NCBI GenBank assembly: GCA_017429165.1 | Contig: JAFRPL010000014.1 | Span: forward strand, 130,113-194,112 | Direction of reading: 5' to 3' | DNA length: 64,000 bases | Origin: Clostridia bacterium | GTDB taxonomy: Bacteria; Bacillota; Clostridia; Oscillospirales; CAG-382 | Shown here: positions 14,299-44,016 of the stretch, one piece after another | Layout of the letters: every line of letters begins with the position of its first letter | Numbering within the stretch: the first letter of the stretch is position 1 | Made by a program: the position numbers and the translations under genes | Notes under the pieces: generated by a model | Told to the model about the DNA's origin: nothing | The model's input: only the letters and a program-made list of their open reading frames with translations | The model's database searches: none

Positions 14299-14751
14299 TT
14301 GGAAACAGGCAGAATAATATCCGAACTGCGTATAAGCGCGGGGCTGACCCAGGAAGAACTTGCCGAACGTCTTTACGTTTCGCGCACGCTGGTGCAGAAA
14401 TGGGAGACCGGCAAACGCAGACCCGGCAAAAGCGATCTGGAATCCGTTGCGGCGATACTCGGCGCCGATCGCGGCGTTTTTTGTGAAAAAGACGACGGGA
14501 TAATGGCCGAGCTTGAGTCGTGCGTTCCGGAAAACTGCGGTATGACCGAAGAAAGCGTGATACCTCTTTTGGAAAACTTTTTGCAGACGCTGCCGCCGAG
14601 AGAACGCAATATCTTTATAAAACGTTATCATTTCCTGCGTTCCGCAAAAGAAATAAGCACGGAAACGGGGATACGCCAGGGACACGTGCGCACCATACTT
14701 TCGCGCACGAGATCCAAACTGAAAGAGTATTTTAAGGAGAATATAAAATGA
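14299..14751 (+). CDS. Chimeric regulator: XRE-family HTH fused to a sigma-70 region-4 domain, with no region 2
   Basis: AAGGAGG lies 7 nt upstream of the TTG at 14299. XRE HTH is ISELRISAGLTQEELAERLYVSRTLVQKWETGKRRP. The region 4-like part is LPPRERNIFIKRYHFLRSAKEISTETGIRQGHVRTILSRTRSKLKEYF. The start codon is uncertain (the ORF is open from 14209). Confidence 0.7.
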   Translation: METGRIISELRISAGLTQEELAERLYVSRTLVQKWETGKRRPGKSDLESVAAILGADRGVFCEKDDGIMAELESCVPENCGMTEESVIPLLENFLQTLPPRERNIFIKRYHFLRSAKEISTETGIRQGHVRTILSRTRSKLKEYFKENIK

Positions 14752-16724
14752 ACGCAAACACTCTTTACGACGCTTTTGCAAAAATAAGCGATTCGCTCAC
14801 CGATACCGCTTACGAAGCGAAAAAACCCGAACGCACCAAAAACTTCAAAACCATCGCGATCGCCGCAGCGGCGCTGGTCGTGGCCGCCGCTGCAATATTC
14901 GCGATCCCGGCGTTCCGCAGCGATCCGAATAACGTTTCCGCCGTCGAAGACACGTCGGAAGTTGATGACAGCAACGTATTATACAGGTCGGAAAACGGCG
15001 AATTCGTCGTGCGCGTCGTCGAGCCGCTGGAAAAGCCAATATGTAGTAATAGTCTGTGGGTGCCGATTTCAGACGGCTTAATGCGCGAAGCCACTGATGT
15101 GGTTTTGGGAACTATAACTAACGTGACTGAAATCTTTTTTGAAACCGAACATAAACCTGACGATTGGTATATCGAAGGTGTCGGGTATGTCACTGATCTT
15201 TCACGATATCGTTCACTAGTAACAGTTAAAATCAAAGATACCATAAATGGCAATCTTTCAGCAGGGGAATCTGTGACTTTTATATTCTACGCTTCTTCTC
15301 GGAACGCCGAGTATACTGCAGGTTACTCGGAAATACTGCCGATTACAGGGGACGAATACGTATTTTATCTGAAAAAGACTGCGGAACTGGATTCCGGCCA
15401 TTTTTACATTCCGATCGCAGATTATTATTATTGCTTGACTGGTCCCTGTTTTGTACCATACGACGAACCGCAACGTCCTGAACTGCTGGCGGTCATAGGA
15501 GCCGAAGAAGGCGCTTGCGGTGAGGAATTTATAGAAGCGCTTGCGAATTATTATGCCGACAGTAACGGAAACGTACTTTACCGTTCCGAAAACGGCGATT
15601 TCGTCGTGCGCGTCGTCGAGCCGCTGGACGTGCCGAAGGTTTATAACTATTTATGGGCGCCCATAACGGACAATATGCTGAATTCTTTTTCGACCGTCAT
15701 AACCGGAACGATAGAAAAGGTGGAAGAAATAGAGATCTCTTACAGCCTTTTTGATCAAGACCTTACCGCTTACTGGTCGCTCCTTACCGTGTCTGCAGAC
15801 GACGTCATAAAAGGAAACGGCGACGTGATCAAGGGCGAGACCGTGAGCGTGCTGTTCGAATTATCCACCCATTCGGCAAATGAAGACAATATTTATCCCC
15901 TGGTAAACGAAAAATACGTTTTCTTCCTTAATAAGACGTCGGAGCTCAAGAACGTTCCGGATTATTCGTCGATCGCCGATTATATGTATGAAATGACCGG
16001 AGATGCGTTTATTCCCCTTGACGAACCTCAAAATCAGCGGCTTTCAGAGATTTTGGGCAGCGAGGATAATTTCGGCGAGAAGTTCGTTGAAGCGCTTGCG
16101 AATTATTATGCCGGCAGTAACGGAGACGTACTTTACCGTTCGGAAGACGGCGATTACACGGTGTGGAAAGTCAATCCCGATAGCCTTTCCGGGGTTAGGT
16201 CAGCCGCTTGCTGGGTGCCGGTAGACGACGAGATGCTTCACAGAGCGAGCGACGTGGTCGTGGGGACGATCAAGGACATTACGGATATATATATCGAGAC
16301 CGGGGATCACGATTATTTAGAAACCCAATACGGCGTCATCGACCTTTCAGAGGTCGATCGTTACAAATCGCTTGTAACCGTGGAAGTGAAAGAAACGATC
16401 AACGGCGATATCGCCGAAGGCGAAACCATCACTTTTGTGTACGAATCGCCTTTGGCGAGCTATCCGAAAAACGTATCGTCAAGCTTATGGGGCGATGAGT
16501 CCGCCATAGTAGGCAGAGATTACGTATTCTTTCTTAAAAAAACTTCCGAAAAGGACTACAAGTTCGATCTGACGCCGATCGCGGCTTACGCATACGGCAT
16601 TATCGGGCCCTGCTTTGTTCCGTACGACGAGCCGCAGGATGCATCCCTGCTGGAGACAATCGGCGCACAAAAAGGCACTTGCGGCGAAGAATTCATTGAA
16701 GCGGTGAAAAAATATTATGAATGA
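14748..16724 (+). CDS. Single-pass membrane protein with three ~190-200-aa internal repeats; it occupies the anti-sigma position
   Basis: ATGA overlap with the upstream gene. The N-terminus has a short cytoplasmic peptide plus the TM AIAAAALVVAAAAIFAIPAF. It contains three copies of NVLYRSENG(E/D)FVV...YVF(Y/F)L(K/N)KT...FIEALANYYA. Confidence 0.8.
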   Translation: MNANTLYDAFAKISDSLTDTAYEAKKPERTKNFKTIAIAAAALVVAAAAIFAIPAFRSDPNNVSAVEDTSEVDDSNVLYRSENGEFVVRVVEPLEKPICSNSLWVPISDGLMREATDVVLGTITNVTEIFFETEHKPDDWYIEGVGYVTDLSRYRSLVTVKIKDTINGNLSAGESVTFIFYASSRNAEYTAGYSEILPITGDEYVFYLKKTAELDSGHFYIPIADYYYCLTGPCFVPYDEPQRPELLAVIGAEEGACGEEFIEALANYYADSNGNVLYRSENGDFVVRVVEPLDVPKVYNYLWAPITDNMLNSFSTVITGTIEKVEEIEISYSLFDQDLTAYWSLLTVSADDVIKGNGDVIKGETVSVLFELSTHSANEDNIYPLVNEKYVFFLNKTSELKNVPDYSSIADYMYEMTGDAFIPLDEPQNQRLSEILGSEDNFGEKFVEALANYYAGSNGDVLYRSEDGDYTVWKVNPDSLSGVRSAACWVPVDDEMLHRASDVVVGTIKDITDIYIETGDHDYLETQYGVIDLSEVDRYKSLVTVEVKETINGDIAEGETITFVYESPLASYPKNVSSSLWGDESAIVGRDYVFFLKKTSEKDYKFDLTPIAAYAYGIIGPCFVPYDEPQDASLLETIGAQKGTCGEEFIEAVKKYYE

Positions 16725-38188: not shown

Positions 38189-38752
38189 ATGAGCATTCCG
38201 GAATATCTGCCAGACAATGAAATAGTCAAGCTGTTTTACGCGCGCGACGAACGCGCCCTGAGCGAGACCGCCCGCAAATACGGCGCGCTCTTCCGCTCGG
38301 TCGCCAACAATCTGCTGCAAAGCGTTCCCGACGCAGAAGAATGCGAAAACGACGCGTATCTGCGGCTGTGGAACGCCATACCGCCCGCCGAGCCAAAAGA
38401 CCTTGGGGCATACGGCGTGAAGATAGCGCGCAATCTTGCGCTGGACGCGGTAAAAAAGCGCACTGCGCAGAAACGCGGCGGATGCGCGGCGATAGAAGAG
38501 CTCTGCGCGGATTTCGACGACGTCCCCGACACTGCCGCCGACGGGCGCGAGCTCGGGGAACTGCTGGATGAATTCCTGCGCACACAGGAAAAATGCGACC
38601 GCGTGATGTTTGTGCTGCGCTACTTTTACGGCGAGCCGCTCAAAAAGACAGCCGAAAGATGCGGGATCAGCGAAAGCGGAGTCAAGACGCGCCTGTTCCG
38701 CACCCGCCAAAAACTCAAATCCTTTTTAAAGAAGAAGGGAGTAACTGTATGA
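38189..38752 (+). CDS. ECF-type sigma-70 family factor
   Basis: Region 2-like DAEECENDAYLRLWNAIPP...GVKIARNLALDA. Region 4-like CDRVMFVLRYFYGEPLKKTAERCGISESGVKTRLFRTRQKLKSFL. Start at the ATG at 38189. Confidence 0.85.
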   Translation: MSIPEYLPDNEIVKLFYARDERALSETARKYGALFRSVANNLLQSVPDAEECENDAYLRLWNAIPPAEPKDLGAYGVKIARNLALDAVKKRTAQKRGGCAAIEELCADFDDVPDTAADGRELGELLDEFLRTQEKCDRVMFVLRYFYGEPLKKTAERCGISESGVKTRLFRTRQKLKSFLKKKGVTV

Positions 38753-41700
38753 AAAACGAAAAATTCATGCGTTCGGTAGGCGAAATAGGCGACGACCTGC
38801 TGCAGGAAGCCGCCGGATACAAAGCCGAAAGCAAGGCAAAAGCCAATGTCCCGGCGCCGCGCGGCAAACTGTTCCGCCGGGCGGGACTCATCGCCGCCGT
38901 GCTCGCGGTAGTGATAGCCGCCGCGTTCGTGATACCCGCGCTGTTCAGGCAGCCGGATCATGTAAAGATCGAGATCCCGCCCGATAACGGAATCATCTTA
39001 AAAGGCGGCGCCTACAGCACCGACGCGAACGCAAACCTGCCTGAATCGCTCAGAGAAATAGAAGTGCTCGCCAACGGCTCGGGCGAAAAGCTTATGGCGA
39101 CCGATTCCACGCTGGTCGTAAAGACCGCCGCGGAATGCGACACCGAAACGTTTGTCAAATACGTTTCGGTCACCCCCGAACTCCCCATGGCGGTGACCAA
39201 AGTCAGCGCCACCGAATTCCATTTGAAACCGGCGCAGACCGCGTTCGCGCCCAACACGCTTTACCGCGTGACGGTGGGCGATCCGCAAAACCCCGCCGCA
39301 AGCTTTGCGTTCCAGACGGTGAGCGAGCTTGCGATAAAAAACATACTCCCCGGCGCGGGCAGCACCGAAGTTCCCGTGAACACGGGAATAGAAGTCACCT
39401 TCACAGATTCGGTGAAGAACGCGGATTTTTCGGATTATATCACTTTGACGCCCGCGGTCAGCGGCAAATTCATGCTCTACCCCAACGGCAAGACCGTGGC
39501 GTTCATACCCAAAGAGCCGCTGGAATACGATTCGGTCTATACCGTCACCGTTAAAGAAGGGCTCGAATCGATCTCCGGCAAGCCGCTGAATGCCGGCCGC
39601 ACCGCGGTGTTCCGCACGGAGGGTCCGGACGAAGACACGCAGTTCGTAAGCTGGATAACCGCCTCGGCGAACGGTTCGCGCAAGGCGATGTTTACTCCCG
39701 GCGATCCGTATTCGCTCGGAAGCTTCGTGGAATACACCGCGGAAATCTATTACAACGACGTGAGCCGCACGTTTGCCGAGCTTCCCGCCGGTCAGGTCGC
39801 TCTCACCGCGACTTTCTACCGCGCCGTTTCGTGGGATTCCGTAGCGGAAGCCGTTACTCAGCTGCTCAGCAGCGATTTTGCCGCCGATTACGACGAAAAC
39901 GCGCTGCTCGACAAATATTTTGAAAAGGTCGACGAAATAGAGTTCGAGCCCAAAGACGGAGTGTTCAGATACAATTGTTCGTACACGCCCGAAAAAGAAG
40001 GCTTTTACTACACCGTTATTACCGCCCGGAAAAACGGCACAGTCCGCACTTTCCGCGACGTGTTCCAGATCTCCAATCTGCGCCTCGGCGGCACGGCGAT
40101 CGACGGCAAAGCGGTCGTAGTCGTTTCGTACGATAACGGGGCGCGCGTCGCAGGCGCGACCGTAAAAGGCCTGCGCTTCAGCGAAAATGCGTTCTACGAA
40201 AGCGTAAACCGCCCCGAAATGACCGCGTTCGAAATAACGTGCGGCTCCGACGGCACCGCGGTGCTGGAATACGGCGCGGGCAACGCGCTGGCGTTCATCT
40301 ACACCGACGGCGAACGCTCGGCGCTGGCGCTGAAAAGCGTGCCGGGATTCGACGATAACGATTACTATATCAACACGCTTTACACCGACCGCAGCGTGTA
40401 TTTCACCAACGACGCCATCAACGTATGGGGCACGCTTAAAGGCCTTTACGGCGCGGAAGTGCCCGAAGAACTGTATGTCTTCACCGGTTTTTCTTCGGTG
40501 GGGACGCCCGTGACCGTGAGCGAAGACGGTTTCTTCAGCGCGAGCCTGAAAATAGAAAACGTTATGCGCACCTACACCTATGTGCGCGTAGAAGACGCGA
40601 ACGGGATCGTACTCGCCAACACGATGATCAGCGTGACCGAGGAAGAAAAGCCCGTGATCAAAGCGGAAATGAGCTTTGAAAAGCCATATTATTTTTACGG
40701 CGATACGGCGGTCGCCACGATAAGAGTCACGTTCTACGACGGCACGCCCGCCGAAGGTTACGAGGTGAGCGCGCGCTGTTACGAATTCGACGGCGACTAC
40801 GGCAAAGTGACCGACGAAAACGGCTGCGCCACGTTCCGTATAAAGACGGGCAGCGTGAATGCGAACTCGACGAACCCGTGGACTGTCAGCGCTTACGCGT
40901 ATATCAGCGGCGAAGGAGTCGATACGCTGCGCTGCGCGGCGTCGTTCGTGTATTTCCATTCCGATTACGTGCTGGCTTATGAAGGCCGAGTCATAAAGCT
41001 CAACGAGCTCGACCGTTCCAAATGCCCCGAATACGCCGCGGGCAAACCGGTCACCACCAAACCGGGAAACGTCGGAGCGGGATCGCTTGAATACGCCCTT
41101 ATTCAGGTCAAATACAACGTATACACCTATACGGAATACGATATGTATCTCAAACGCAGCGTGGAGCGCACACGCTCCGAACGCATCGAGACCTGCGAAG
41201 AACAGGGCAAACTGTATTTTGAAGACGGCAGGATAGAACTTAAAAAGGTCGATTACGACCCGGAAAAGTACTACTACTATTACAGACTGTACTTCACCGA
41301 CGCGCACGGGCGCTACGAATTCACAGTCCCGGCCCGCGATTACGATGATTCTTATTACACCCGCTATTACACCTATTACGACCGCGCGTATACCGTAGTG
41401 CTGGATAAAGACGCGTACCTTCCGGGCGACACCGTGAACGCCAGGTTCATATACGGTGAAACGAACAACTGCCCCGAACCCGTGCTCGTATTCACCGGCA
41501 CAAGCTATATCAGCCACACGAGCGGCAGCGAAGGCGCGGAACTGTTCACCGAAGAACGGCTTCCCGAAATGCGCGTGACGGCGCTGTTTTTCGACGAAAT
41601 CAGAAAGAGCTGGCGCGCGGCAGGATCGACCGCTTCGTATGATTACGGCAGCGCTGTCGACGGCGAGATAAGCGTCAAGACCGACAAAGACGTCTATAAA

Positions 41701-44016
41701 CCCGGCGACACCGTCACGGTCACCGTGACCGCTCCGCAGCTTGCGGGCGGGAAAGCGCTTATAAGCATTGTGGACGAAGCGTGCTTCGCCTTGGGCGAAA
41801 ACGCGTACAGTCTGCTTAATTACCTCAAATCGAGCGGCTATTTCGCGTCACAGTCTTATATGATCCGTTCTTACAATGCTTACAATGAATATAGGTACCG
41901 CGGTTATATTCAGGGTTATCACACCGGCGGAAGGCTCACTTCGTTTTCCGATATCCCGCTTTCGCGCCTGATCGGCTCGAAACTCGGGGGCAATTCCGAT
42001 TATATATATATCGACGGCAAAATGTATAGGTATGAGTACATGGAAGCAGAAGCGGAAGCGCCCGGAGACGCCGTCAACACGGAAGGCGAAAAATCGTACT
42101 ATGTGCGCGAAAACTTCGCCGACAACCCCGTTTTTGCACAGCTCGAATTCGACGAAAACGGCACGGCGACGCTGGTATTCAAGGTACCGGACAACCTCAC
42201 GACCTGGCGCGTGACCGCGCTGGGCATAAAGAATGCGGAAAAATTCAGCGACATCCGCATTGCGCAGAGCACGGGCGATCCCGTGTGCACGCTGCCGTTC
42301 TTCGTAAAGACCGATATGTGTTCCACCTACGTCAAAGGCGACGACATTGCGCTTTCGGTCCGCTGCTTCGGTACAAAAGCGCAGGGACATGCAAATTATA
42401 CGGCGGTGATATGCGACGCTGAAGGCAGCGAGATAGCGCGCAAAGAGGTTTCCGGCGACACCAAGGCGTTCACCGGAGTCAATTTCGGCAAGCTGGACGC
42501 AGGCGATTACAGTCTCACCGTTTACGCCGACTGCGGCGAATACACCGACGCTTTGAAGAGCACGTTCAGAGTGGTGACTTCCACGCTCGCGGTAGACGCT
42601 GTGGCGACGGTCACCTTGGACGAACTCAAATCCCTTAAAACGCTCGCATACCCCGTGAACGTGGTCGTAAGCGCCGGCGGAAGCGATTCGTTCTATTCCG
42701 GGGTGCTCGGCAGTCTCTATTACTCATACGGCGAACGCGCCGACGCGCTGGCGGCGAAATATGCCGCGGCGGTCATAATGAAAAACGTCTACGGCGGCGA
42801 TTTCGGCATTTCGGATATCGAAAGCAAGTTCGAATCGTTCTGCGGGACGGCCGGCGTCAAGCTTTTGCCTTACGGCGAAGCGGACGTCGAATTGACCGCT
42901 CTCATTGCGGACGTCGCTCCGGAGCTTTTGGCAGGAAAACTCACTGCTGCCGATCTGTTTGCAAACAAGCTTAACCGTAACGTGTTCCAAAGCGACGTGG
43001 AGCTTTGCGCTTCGATATACGGACTCGCCGCGTGCGGCGAACCCGTGCTCGACGTGCTGTACACGGTATCGTCGCAGGCCGGCGACTACAGCGACGAAGC
43101 CAAGTTTTACCTTGCGTGCGGATTTGCCGCAGCGGGCGATTATACCGCCGCGGAAAGCATCTATTCGCAAATAGTCGGCAAACTTGCGGTCGGCGTTGAA
43201 AACGCGATGTACCTCAAAGGCGCCGACGAAGACGCAAAGATCAAGCTCACTTCCCTTGCGCTGGTCGTCGCTTCGCGCATCAGGCGTTCCGACGCGATCA
43301 GATTCGCGCGCTACGCGGTAAGTATCCCGAACACGCACGGCGAAGCCGCGCATCTGGGACTTGCGGCGTTTGCAAAGTATTATCTGCCCGCCGAAAAGCA
43401 GGAACTGCAGAATATAAGCTACACTCTCGCCGACGGCGTTAAGCACGAGTCCGCAATAGGGTTCGGCAAGCAGCTTTGCCTTACGCTTTACAAATCGGAT
43501 CTCGAATCGCTCGTCCTTGAAGGGTGCGAAAACGCCGCGATAACCGTGCGTTACAGCGCGAGCGCCGCCGAGGCCGCGCGCGATTACGGCAAAGGCAGAG
43601 TGAAAGTGCAGAAGACCGTAAGCGGCGACGTGGTGACGATAACCGTTTCGGGTACTTCCAACAGGTACTGGGAATACTTCTCGTTCGACGACGTCATCCC
43701 TTCGGGCGCCCGCCTGCTCTACACTTTCAACCACGGCGACTACGCCAGAGGCAGCAACGCGACCGCGTATATCTACAACCGCGCCGGTCAGCGGATGGAA
43801 GGCCACATTTCGGTATCGGCCCCCGAAAGCTACTTTAAAAACTACCGCAAAGACAACACGGAATTCTGCAAGCAATATTCGTTCTCAGTCACCGTGAGTT
43901 ACCGCATACGCAAGGCGGTCAGCGGCGAGTTCAAGGTGGAACCCGCGGTGGTCGGTTCCGAATACAGCGAAGTATTTGAATTTTCAACAGGCAGTACGAC
44001 CGTTGTTTACGATTGA
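38749..44016 (+). CDS. Giant (1755 aa) single-pass membrane protein with an alpha-2-macroglobulin-like ectodomain; it occupies the anti-sigma position
   Basis: ATGA overlap with the sigma gene. TM is AGLIAAVLAVVIAAAFVIPALF. A bacterial Ig-like domain is present (ILPGAGSTEVPVNTGIEVTF...YTVTVKEGL). The A2M hallmark VPDNLTTWRVTALG is followed by LPFFVKTDM..GDDIALSV. The C-terminal FDDVIPSGARLL completes the pattern. Confidence 0.8.
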   Translation: MKNEKFMRSVGEIGDDLLQEAAGYKAESKAKANVPAPRGKLFRRAGLIAAVLAVVIAAAFVIPALFRQPDHVKIEIPPDNGIILKGGAYSTDANANLPESLREIEVLANGSGEKLMATDSTLVVKTAAECDTETFVKYVSVTPELPMAVTKVSATEFHLKPAQTAFAPNTLYRVTVGDPQNPAASFAFQTVSELAIKNILPGAGSTEVPVNTGIEVTFTDSVKNADFSDYITLTPAVSGKFMLYPNGKTVAFIPKEPLEYDSVYTVTVKEGLESISGKPLNAGRTAVFRTEGPDEDTQFVSWITASANGSRKAMFTPGDPYSLGSFVEYTAEIYYNDVSRTFAELPAGQVALTATFYRAVSWDSVAEAVTQLLSSDFAADYDENALLDKYFEKVDEIEFEPKDGVFRYNCSYTPEKEGFYYTVITARKNGTVRTFRDVFQISNLRLGGTAIDGKAVVVVSYDNGARVAGATVKGLRFSENAFYESVNRPEMTAFEITCGSDGTAVLEYGAGNALAFIYTDGERSALALKSVPGFDDNDYYINTLYTDRSVYFTNDAINVWGTLKGLYGAEVPEELYVFTGFSSVGTPVTVSEDGFFSASLKIENVMRTYTYVRVEDANGIVLANTMISVTEEEKPVIKAEMSFEKPYYFYGDTAVATIRVTFYDGTPAEGYEVSARCYEFDGDYGKVTDENGCATFRIKTGSVNANSTNPWTVSAYAYISGEGVDTLRCAASFVYFHSDYVLAYEGRVIKLNELDRSKCPEYAAGKPVTTKPGNVGAGSLEYALIQVKYNVYTYTEYDMYLKRSVERTRSERIETCEEQGKLYFEDGRIELKKVDYDPEKYYYYYRLYFTDAHGRYEFTVPARDYDDSYYTRYYTYYDRAYTVVLDKDAYLPGDTVNARFIYGETNNCPEPVLVFTGTSYISHTSGSEGAELFTEERLPEMRVTALFFDEIRKSWRAAGSTASYDYGSAVDGEISVKTDKDVYKPGDTVTVTVTAPQLAGGKALISIVDEACFALGENAYSLLNYLKSSGYFASQSYMIRSYNAYNEYRYRGYIQGYHTGGRLTSFSDIPLSRLIGSKLGGNSDYIYIDGKMYRYEYMEAEAEAPGDAVNTEGEKSYYVRENFADNPVFAQLEFDENGTATLVFKVPDNLTTWRVTALGIKNAEKFSDIRIAQSTGDPVCTLPFFVKTDMCSTYVKGDDIALSVRCFGTKAQGHANYTAVICDAEGSEIARKEVSGDTKAFTGVNFGKLDAGDYSLTVYADCGEYTDALKSTFRVVTSTLAVDAVATVTLDELKSLKTLAYPVNVVVSAGGSDSFYSGVLGSLYYSYGERADALAAKYAAAVIMKNVYGGDFGISDIESKFESFCGTAGVKLLPYGEADVELTALIADVAPELLAGKLTAADLFANKLNRNVFQSDVELCASIYGLAACGEPVLDVLYTVSSQAGDYSDEAKFYLACGFAAAGDYTAAESIYSQIVGKLAVGVENAMYLKGADEDAKIKLTSLALVVASRIRRSDAIRFARYAVSIPNTHGEAAHLGLAAFAKYYLPAEKQELQNISYTLADGVKHESAIGFGKQLCLTLYKSDLESLVLEGCENAAITVRYSASAAEAARDYGKGRVKVQKTVSGDVVTITVSGTSNRYWEYFSFDDVIPSGARLLYTFNHGDYARGSNATAYIYNRAGQRMEGHISVSAPESYFKNYRKDNTEFCKQYSFSVTVSYRIRKAVSGEFKVEPAVVGSEYSEVFEFSTGSTTVVYD

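Follow-up and report, generated by a model that had tools for sequence, protein, structure and literature searches.

The 64,000-nucleotide stretch of Clostridia bacterium DNA analyzed here (assembly GCA_017429165.1, contig JAFRPL010000014.1, positions 130,113 to 194,112; hereafter the window) raises the question of whether two large membrane proteins with different ectodomains begin with one and the same short module and, if so, what that module contacts. Pairs of extracytoplasmic function (ECF) sigma factors and anti-sigma factors are one of the main bacterial transmembrane signaling routes (PMC7826278), and a preliminary description of the window had proposed that the products of gene 1 (open reading frame, ORF, 14748-16724; 658 amino acids) and gene 2 (ORF 38749-44016; 1755 amino acids) are two sigma-partner proteins sharing such a module. 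The positions and N-terminal sequences of both ORFs are exactly as quoted there. They belong to two operons of the same shape, in which the stop codon of a regulator gene overlaps the start codon of the downstream membrane protein gene via ATGA (we refer to this downstream membrane protein as the partner), and both partners proceed from an N-terminal helix through a basic stretch into one Ala-rich membrane helix. The designation as sigma partners applies to only one of them: the neighbor of gene 2 is a full ECF sigma factor, whereas that of gene 1 is not a sigma factor, because it lacks region 2.

The best explanation of the data as a whole, which we regard as likely, is that an amphipathic helix docking onto sigma region 4 tethers the regulator, the ectodomain senses, and proteolysis releases. 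The partner is translationally coupled to a regulator carrying one particular clade of region 4 (sigma4), either a full ECF sigma factor or a derivative with an XRE domain in place of region 2. The hydrophobic stripe of the helix would pack onto region 4.1, i.e. the first two helices of region 4, flanked by two salt bridges involving the x of ID(D/E)-x-L-I and the residue four positions on. Docked in this way, the regulator would remain at the membrane and be kept from RNA polymerase or DNA. Something outside the cell would be sensed by the variable ectodomain, and a site-1 cut, followed by the action of an M50 site-2 protease in the Ala-rich membrane helix, would then set the regulator free.

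The first part of the question can only be answered at the level of a family. BLASTP of the two window N-termini aligns their membrane segments only (E=3.5), and by that measure the pairwise likeness is insignificant by itself. Gene 2 was missed by a helix-only hidden Markov model (HMM) made from the six XRE-type paralogs of this genome as well as by an HMM of the XRE-partner helix alone, so that the link required the set of ECF partners and a profile-profile comparison; a full-length HMM from the six XRE-type paralogs was dropped, as the membrane helix dominates the model. The helix profiles of the XRE partners and the ECF partners match each other in hhalign with 98% probability (E=2e-13, 23 columns). 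A combined helix HMM of 24 positions, built from 204 sequences of which none came from this genome, was searched against 20,776 six-frame ORFs and returned six matches with E<0.01 in this genome, including gene 1 (E=0.0037) and gene 2 (E=0.0089); the next match, a nonmember, had E=0.68. Each of the six is an N-terminus whose start coincides with the stop codon of a sigma4-bearing gene. The shared pattern noticed earlier thus holds for the family and not for the pair, and the HMM scan put forward as its check, here run with models from other genomes, finds both window proteins in their sigma4-adjacent positions. Judged by these profiles, the N-terminal motif is real and family-wide, with both window proteins being somewhat divergent members.

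Across the family, the consensus reads M-x4-(L/F)-(F/Y/L)-x-A-(I/L)-(G/S)-x-I-D-(D/E)-x-(L/Y/F)-(I/L/V)-x-(E/R)-(A/S), followed by a basic linker and one membrane helix, while that of the XRE partners is M-N-x3-L-F-(D/N)-A-(I/L)-(S/A)-x-I-D-(E/D)-x-L-I-(D/E)-(R/E)-(S/A), with a K/R-rich linker ahead of the membrane helix. Conservation is confined to a single block of about 24 residues, and the membrane helix starts at a median residue of 40 in the XRE type and 37 in the ECF type. Several details attributed to the module on the basis of the two window proteins require adjustment. The cytoplasmic part is indeed short, but instead of 25-30 residues it measures 34 and 44 in the window proteins, with a family median of 37-40. 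The "EA..Y" tail is not a family-wide trait (2 of 75 XRE-type partners), although it does mark a subgroup of the ECF type (28 of 129). A membrane helix ending in (F/V)(A/I)IPA does not belong to the module, since it is found in just one of 75 XRE-type and none of 129 ECF-type relatives; furthermore, Pro near the end of the membrane helix is no commoner in partners than in control anchors.

The coupling of this motif to sigma4 genes is exclusive in the genomes sampled, which agrees with the earlier expectation that it would be found beside sigma-like genes: all significant matches here, and those in the sampled relatives, directly follow a regulator gene. The genome itself (2.16 Mb, with 33 sigma-like matches) encodes six XRE-sigma4 paralogs, each of which is followed by a single-pass protein starting MNxxxLYDAFAxIDExLI, and three full ECF sigma factors whose partners start similarly, namely that of gene 2, one on C35, and one on C17, for six to nine regulator-partner pairs in all. 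Using an alignment of the six XRE-sigma4 proteins, we retrieved 80 database loci, all from rumen or gut Clostridia, and a downstream protein with the helix and a membrane helix is present at 75 of them. The sigma subfamily of gene 2, recognizable by its ELxECIP linker and RRYWY-type region 4, occurs in 72 of 151 genomes of the order, with at most 12 paralogs per genome, and every one of the 129 loci examined encodes a partner in which xxLxxAIGxIDDx(L/Y)IxEA is followed by a membrane helix. In a phylum sample of 301 genomes, other Bacillota families contributed 17 further loci, and the same pairing recurs at 16 of them. The partner typically starts 4 nt before the regulator stop codon, and the ATGA overlap, the single membrane helix, and the basic residues on its inner side together give the setting of a membrane anti-sigma factor, which lies beside its sigma gene, is co-transcribed with it, and is anchored with the N-terminus in the cytoplasm. 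The first ~24 residues are, by all these sequence comparisons, the cytoplasmic head of a large unannotated single-pass family in Bacillota.

What the two kinds of regulator have in common is confined to their C-terminal halves, which consist of the ELxECIP linker and one clade of sigma4. When three XRE-sigma4 proteins were used as queries in a region-4 search of this genome, they matched the other paralogs and exactly the three ECF sigma factors that have helix-bearing partners; one of the three queries gave a marginal extra match to a sigma factor on C7 (E=0.0035), and the remainder of the ~20 other sigma-like proteins in the genome showed no match to XRE-sigma4 region 4. In this genome, the clade consists of exactly the nine regulators with helix-bearing partners. 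Because the linker and region 4 are common to both, the XRE-sigma4 proteins look like members of this ECF clade in which an XRE helix-turn-helix (HTH) has been substituted for region 2. Neither Pfam nor NCBIfam detects region 2 in the regulator of gene 1, in which the TIGR02937 match is limited to positions 110-164. By comparison, the regulator of gene 2 matches Sigma70_r2, Sigma70_r4_2, Sigma70_ECF, and TIGR02937 (78 bits) and consists of regions 2 and 4 only. Within the 301-genome sample, the full-length XRE-sigma4 hybrid was found in this genome only.

Opposite this constant pairing stands the diversity of the ectodomains. Clustering of 108 ectodomains gave 54 clusters without BLAST similarity to each other, four of which mix XRE-type and ECF-type partners, and while Pfam identifies serpin, LRR_5, DUF4349, or SBP_bac_5 domains in a small number, most give no match. 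From this distribution, it is clear that many recombination events have joined heads to new ectodomains. The idea of a portable module to which differing ectodomains are attached is thereby supported, as the same sequence of helix, linker, and membrane helix sits on 54 unrelated clusters. As a separate observation, the NVLYRSENG(D/E)F repeat of gene 1 also serves as the ectodomain of partners of two full ECF sigma factors (C8 near 122703 and C26 near 36662), and these two have longer cytoplasmic N-termini in which the helix motif is absent.

The second part of the question, namely what the module contacts, was approached through covariation between regulator columns and helix columns, calculated as mutual information with average-product correction on a reduced alphabet. 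Among 132 ECF pairs and 4,440 column pairs, the highest score joins the bracketed residue of FL[R]xL in the sigma factor with the x of IDD-x-LI in the helix (Z=0.34), and the second joins the bracketed residue of EER[N]IF, together with the neighboring R, with the second E of LIE-E-A (Z=0.23), as compared to a maximum of 0.112±0.011 in randomly shuffled pairings. The first pair is charge-complementary in 46 basic/acidic and 16 acidic/basic combinations against 9 of the same sign, and in gene 2 itself, R is paired with D and RV with E, which are the dominant complementary combinations. In the 71 XRE pairs, the same two position pairs appear within the top four (0.30-0.36 observed, as compared to a shuffle maximum of 0.204) and the charges are swapped in a similar manner, with AD facing Arg in some pairs and RS facing Glu in others, for example. 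Each covarying column has undergone at least 41 charge-class changes on the sigma tree and the signal therefore does not stem from one clade split. In a sister-pair test of 41 cherries, co-change was enriched, at 9 of 15 versus 6 of 26 for one pair and 7 of 9 versus 7 of 32 for the other. On the partner helix, the two positions are four residues apart (i and i+4) and border the hydrophobic stripe; those of the sigma factor are spaced i and i+7/8 within region 4.1, so that each set lies on one helix face. On E. coli sigmaE, the sigma positions correspond to E134 and R141/M142 (sequence checked against PDB 1OR7). Weak covariation on the sigma2 side in the ECF family (columns 40-46 with helix positions 6-8) was not used, since it came from one clade of five near-identical sequences. 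Taken at face value, the covariation indicates that the helix is most likely directed at region 4 of its own regulator.

Release of the regulator by proteolysis is feasible as well, because M50 site-2 proteases are present in the genome and an Ala-rich AAC/AAA[ACG] motif is enriched where the membrane helix borders on the cytoplasm, with a frequency of 61% in ECF-type and 27% in XRE-type partners versus 13% in control N-anchored proteins. This motif could be a site-2 protease feature or a degron; Ala-rich degrons occur in other anti-sigma factors.

AlphaFold2 predicts the peptide alone to be a single helix (pLDDT 86/89/73). At a sole locus of ~225 (L005:3436-3470), the partner is in frame with the regulator, 18 nt past the TGA, and a model of the read-through fusion with TGA read as Gly reached an overall pLDDT of 86.9 and a pTM of 0.78. 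Foldseek matched this model to XRE-type HTH domains only in the PDB. The model was rejected as docking evidence in either direction, given that its helix is no better predicted than the free peptide. An unpaired block alignment for AlphaFold2 (A4) was likewise discarded, because MAFFT had put helix fragments onto the XRE recognition helix, setting MSQEDLSNRLFVSKDLVSKW of that region against MNxxDLFNAISxIDExLIDR; this placement is probably an alignment artifact of two amphipathic helices.

Several observations weigh against a helix that docks on region 4 and silences its regulator. Firstly, the shuffling of pairings leaves the phylogenetic signal in place, and the two position pairs are not top-ranked when the sister-pair test, which has low power, is run over all column pairs. 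Secondly, the covarying positions map to E134 and R141/M142 and not to R149/R178, the residues that helix 1 of class I domains is known to contact. Thirdly, the consensus Asp is missing from both window proteins, which are atypical at this most conserved position of the family in having Ser (gene 1) or Gly (gene 2), with an Asp one position later. Fourthly, the helix in the L005 fusion reaches a pLDDT of 64/83/64, no improvement on the free peptide. Lastly, a full ECF sigma factor that has kept its region 2 would have to be silenced through one region-4 helix.

Three other explanations were weighed against the tethering model. The helix might bind the regulator and act positively, serving as a co-factor or membrane recruitment tag for stability or activity, much like a second sigma subunit. 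Coupling and covariation are evidence of partnership, not of the sign of the effect; a contact limited to region 4 would leave region 2 of the ECF sigma factors free, and the XRE-sigma4 proteins have no core-binding region in need of a block. Against this, known anti-sigma factors are arranged in the same way, with a translationally coupled gene in the +1 position, single-pass topology, and a variable sensor ectodomain (PMC7826278), and a membrane tether would keep a DNA-binding protein from most of the chromosome. We therefore consider a positive role unlikely. Slightly less likely still is that the job of the helix has nothing to do with the regulator (e.g. insertion or topology, protease or adaptor docking, or oligomerization) and that its co-occurrence with sigma4 is a product of operon descent. 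A free amphipathic helix is what AlphaFold2 gives without a partner and phylogenetic co-inheritance inflates covariation scores, both of which would suit such a role. However, the helix has stayed with the sigma4 clade while 54 ectodomain clusters were swapped, even after the change from region 2 to XRE, the same two charge-complementary pairs lead the covariation rankings in both families, which were sampled separately, and other ECF partners in the genome use different N-termini (zf-HC2-like or of the MKTYEET type). Finally, a mere chance likeness between two short Ala-rich signal-anchor starts, which would account for the BLASTP result of the pair, the escape of gene 2 from the XRE-type helix HMMs, and the failure of relatives to keep the shared IPA ending, is very improbable given that both N-termini fall below E=0.01 with a profile from other genomes (the next match being at E=0.68), that orthologous loci of both types have the motif almost without exception, and that the two profiles match at 98%.

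The coordinates of the features at the two loci are listed below.

Features of the two window loci and other XRE-sigma4 paralogs of this genome
Feature	Position	Strand	Basis
XRE-HTH plus sigma-70 region 4 regulator, ~150 amino acids, cognate of gene 1	14299..14751	+	Pfam HTH_3/HTH_31, Sigma70_r4/r4_2
Sigma region 4 of the XRE-sigma4 regulator	14569..14727	+	Pfam coordinates
Proposed docking surface, FL[Q]TL ... R[N]IF, region 4.1	within 14569..14727	+	Covarying columns 97 and 104/105, XRE-family alignment
Gene 1 predicted N-terminal amphipathic helix, MNANTLYDAFAKISDSLTDTAYEA	14748..14819	+	Combined helix HMM E=0.0037; consensus
Gene 1 basic cytoplasmic linker, KKPERTKNFK	14820..14849	+	Sequence; K/R-rich columns in family
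Gene 1 single Ala-rich transmembrane helix, TIAIAAAALVVAAAAIFAIPAF	14850..14915	+	Hydropathy scan
Gene 1 ectodomain, three repeats of ~190-200 amino acids	14916..16724	+	No Pfam match
ECF sigma factor, regions 2 and 4, cognate of gene 2	38189..38752	+	Pfam, NCBIfam, subfamily search
Region 4 of the ECF sigma factor, FL[R]TQ and D[R][V]MF at covarying positions	38600..38719	+	Pfam
Gene 2 predicted N-terminal amphipathic helix, MKNEKFMRSVGEIGDDLLQEAAGY	38749..38820	+	ECF-partner helix HMM E=7.6e-5, top match in genome; combined HMM E=0.0089
Gene 2 single Ala-rich transmembrane helix, AGLIAAVLAVVIAAAFVIPALF	38881..38946	+	Hydropathy scan
Gene 2 ectodomain, Big_5 plus bacterial alpha-2-macroglobulin-like	38947..44016	+	Pfam Big_5, A2M, A2M_BRD, bMG10
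Other XRE-sigma4 paralogs of this genome	C24:2213-2656, C37:174297-174740, C8:121224-121667, C26:52191-52634, C29:83357-83800

The regulator gene upstream of gene 1 begins with TTG and is preceded by a GGAGG ribosome-binding site. A few further observations concern the wider set of sigma factors and partners. In the ECF-type partners at L094 and L104, two tandem copies of the helix motif precede the membrane segment (LFNAMNKIDDGLIGSAF...LNNAITNIDDDIIEAAL). At C37:21073-27058, there are three clustered ECF sigma factors, each with a partner starting MKTYEETxRxVLxRVxE, which constitutes a second and different family of short N-terminal motifs, and the zf-HC2-like partner of this genome pairs with a different sigma factor. 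ECF-like sigma factors fused to long soluble C-terminal extensions (ORFs of 441-887 amino acids) are encoded at C8:58326, C29:4027, C29:188867, and C37:7785; a search of this genome for natural fusions of sigma and anti-sigma factors yielded these four long sigma ORFs, which have neither the helix motif nor a membrane helix.

Database comparisons give the family no established name. The anti-sigma models of Pfam and NCBIfam match neither of the two window proteins and none of 41 N-termini at E<=1, and a profile search of the PDB returned membrane-helix noise only. A homolog search with residues 1-70 of a 500-amino-acid member found three near-identical "hypothetical proteins"; the motif is too short for a search among 5.8 billion sequences. 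DUF4179 (PF13786) scores 15.5-17.5 bits, as compared to a gathering threshold of 30.1, in 6 of 41 members at E<=1, and this weak match covers the membrane helix rather than the N-terminal helix. A literature search that covered this helix motif, hybrids of XRE and sigma4, short anti-sigma helices, and Rsi24C brought up no paper on the motif or on such hybrids. In the ECF reclassification, most predicted anti-sigma factors match no characterized Pfam domain (PMC7826278).

At even odds, in our estimation, a ~20-residue helix touching region 4.1 only would represent a fourth, minimal class of anti-sigma factor, and the exchange of ECF region 2 for an XRE domain would have taken place under membrane control. 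If true, a helix without need of region 2 would make it possible for an XRE HTH to take the place of region 2 while membrane control is kept, and the outcome would be a new type of signaling in which a transcription factor with two HTH domains is gated by an anti-sigma-style, ectodomain-driven tether, spread through the rumen and gut Oscillospirales with dozens of sensor domains. The data also indicate that a non-sigma transcription factor has co-opted anti-sigma control. The domain is now defined at the residue level, and its profile labels hundreds of "hypothetical" membrane proteins of gut and rumen Bacillota as probable anti-sigma-type sensors, including serpin-, macroglobulin-, and LRR-headed ones. 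Moreover, the two predicted salt-bridge positions are open to charge swapping. A 24-residue binder of region 4 could furthermore serve as a compact orthogonal part, as its sigma factors, with up to 12 paralogs per genome, are presumably insulated from each other.

Among the closest known systems are the class I and class II anti-sigma domains. Class I domains are three-helix bundles plus a fourth helix, with helix 1 binding region 4 and helix 4 binding region 2, and in RseA, Asp11 of helix 1 contacts R149 and R178 of sigmaE (PMC7406223). Like class I helix 1 (RseA-sigmaE, PDB 1OR7; RsiW, ChrR, and RskA), the module is a cytoplasmic helix at the N-terminus of a single-pass protein whose gene directly follows that of the sigma factor, and both exhibit a Phi-D-x-x-Phi pattern. 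The Asp of the helix is found in 83% of XRE-type and 73% of ECF-type partners, and the Arg equivalents of R149/R178 are invariant or nearly so in the sigma4 clade; the two sides of this contact are hence both conserved here, and invariant columns cannot covary. Unlike class I domains, the module has neither the three-helix bundle nor the helix that binds region 2, its cytoplasmic part comprises 37-40 residues as opposed to roughly 80-90, and its covarying positions are the equivalents of E134 and R141/M142 in region 4.1. Class II domains (CnrY and NepR) form a two-helix clamp around region 2 and region 4 (PMC6101532), with the first helix of CnrY occupying the site on region 4 at which helix 1 binds in class I (PMC7406223, PMC6101532). 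The earlier contention that the cytoplasmic part is much shorter than classical anti-sigma domains is accordingly valid for class I, but it overlooked these two-helix class II proteins (PMC6101532). Class II (CnrY-CnrH and NepR-EcfG/PhyR) resembles the module in being a minimal, very short anti-sigma element, whereas here one helix is conserved, a single helix is predicted, there is no sequence similarity, and six partners in this genome plus 75 elsewhere pair with regulators without region 2. With one helix, 37-40 residues, and partners without region 2, the module therefore lacks the defining features of both class I and class II.

Two further systems offer parallels of another kind. In the SigV-RsiV system of the Firmicutes, the anti-sigma factor is a single-pass protein whose ectodomain is the receptor and release occurs by regulated intramembrane proteolysis. 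The proteins studied here share with the RsiV-type/DUF4179 group their occurrence in Firmicutes, the single-pass topology, and a weak DUF4179 match over the membrane helix, although that match remains below the Pfam cut-off. In PhyR-NepR, an anti-sigma element binds a sigma-derived domain of a non-sigma protein (PMC6101532), and the XRE-sigma4 regulators are likewise non-sigma proteins whose sigma-derived domain is the presumed partner of an anti-sigma element. However, PhyR acts as a decoy under the control of phosphorylation and has both sigma domains, whereas the XRE-sigma4 regulators retain the linker and region 4 only, have a second DNA-binding domain, and come with their own co-encoded membrane partner. 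Together with the genomic and covariation evidence, these similarities and differences support the view that the module is a one-helix, sigma4-directed variant of the anti-sigma domain, which appears to have been taken up by an XRE-sigma4 transcription factor as well.

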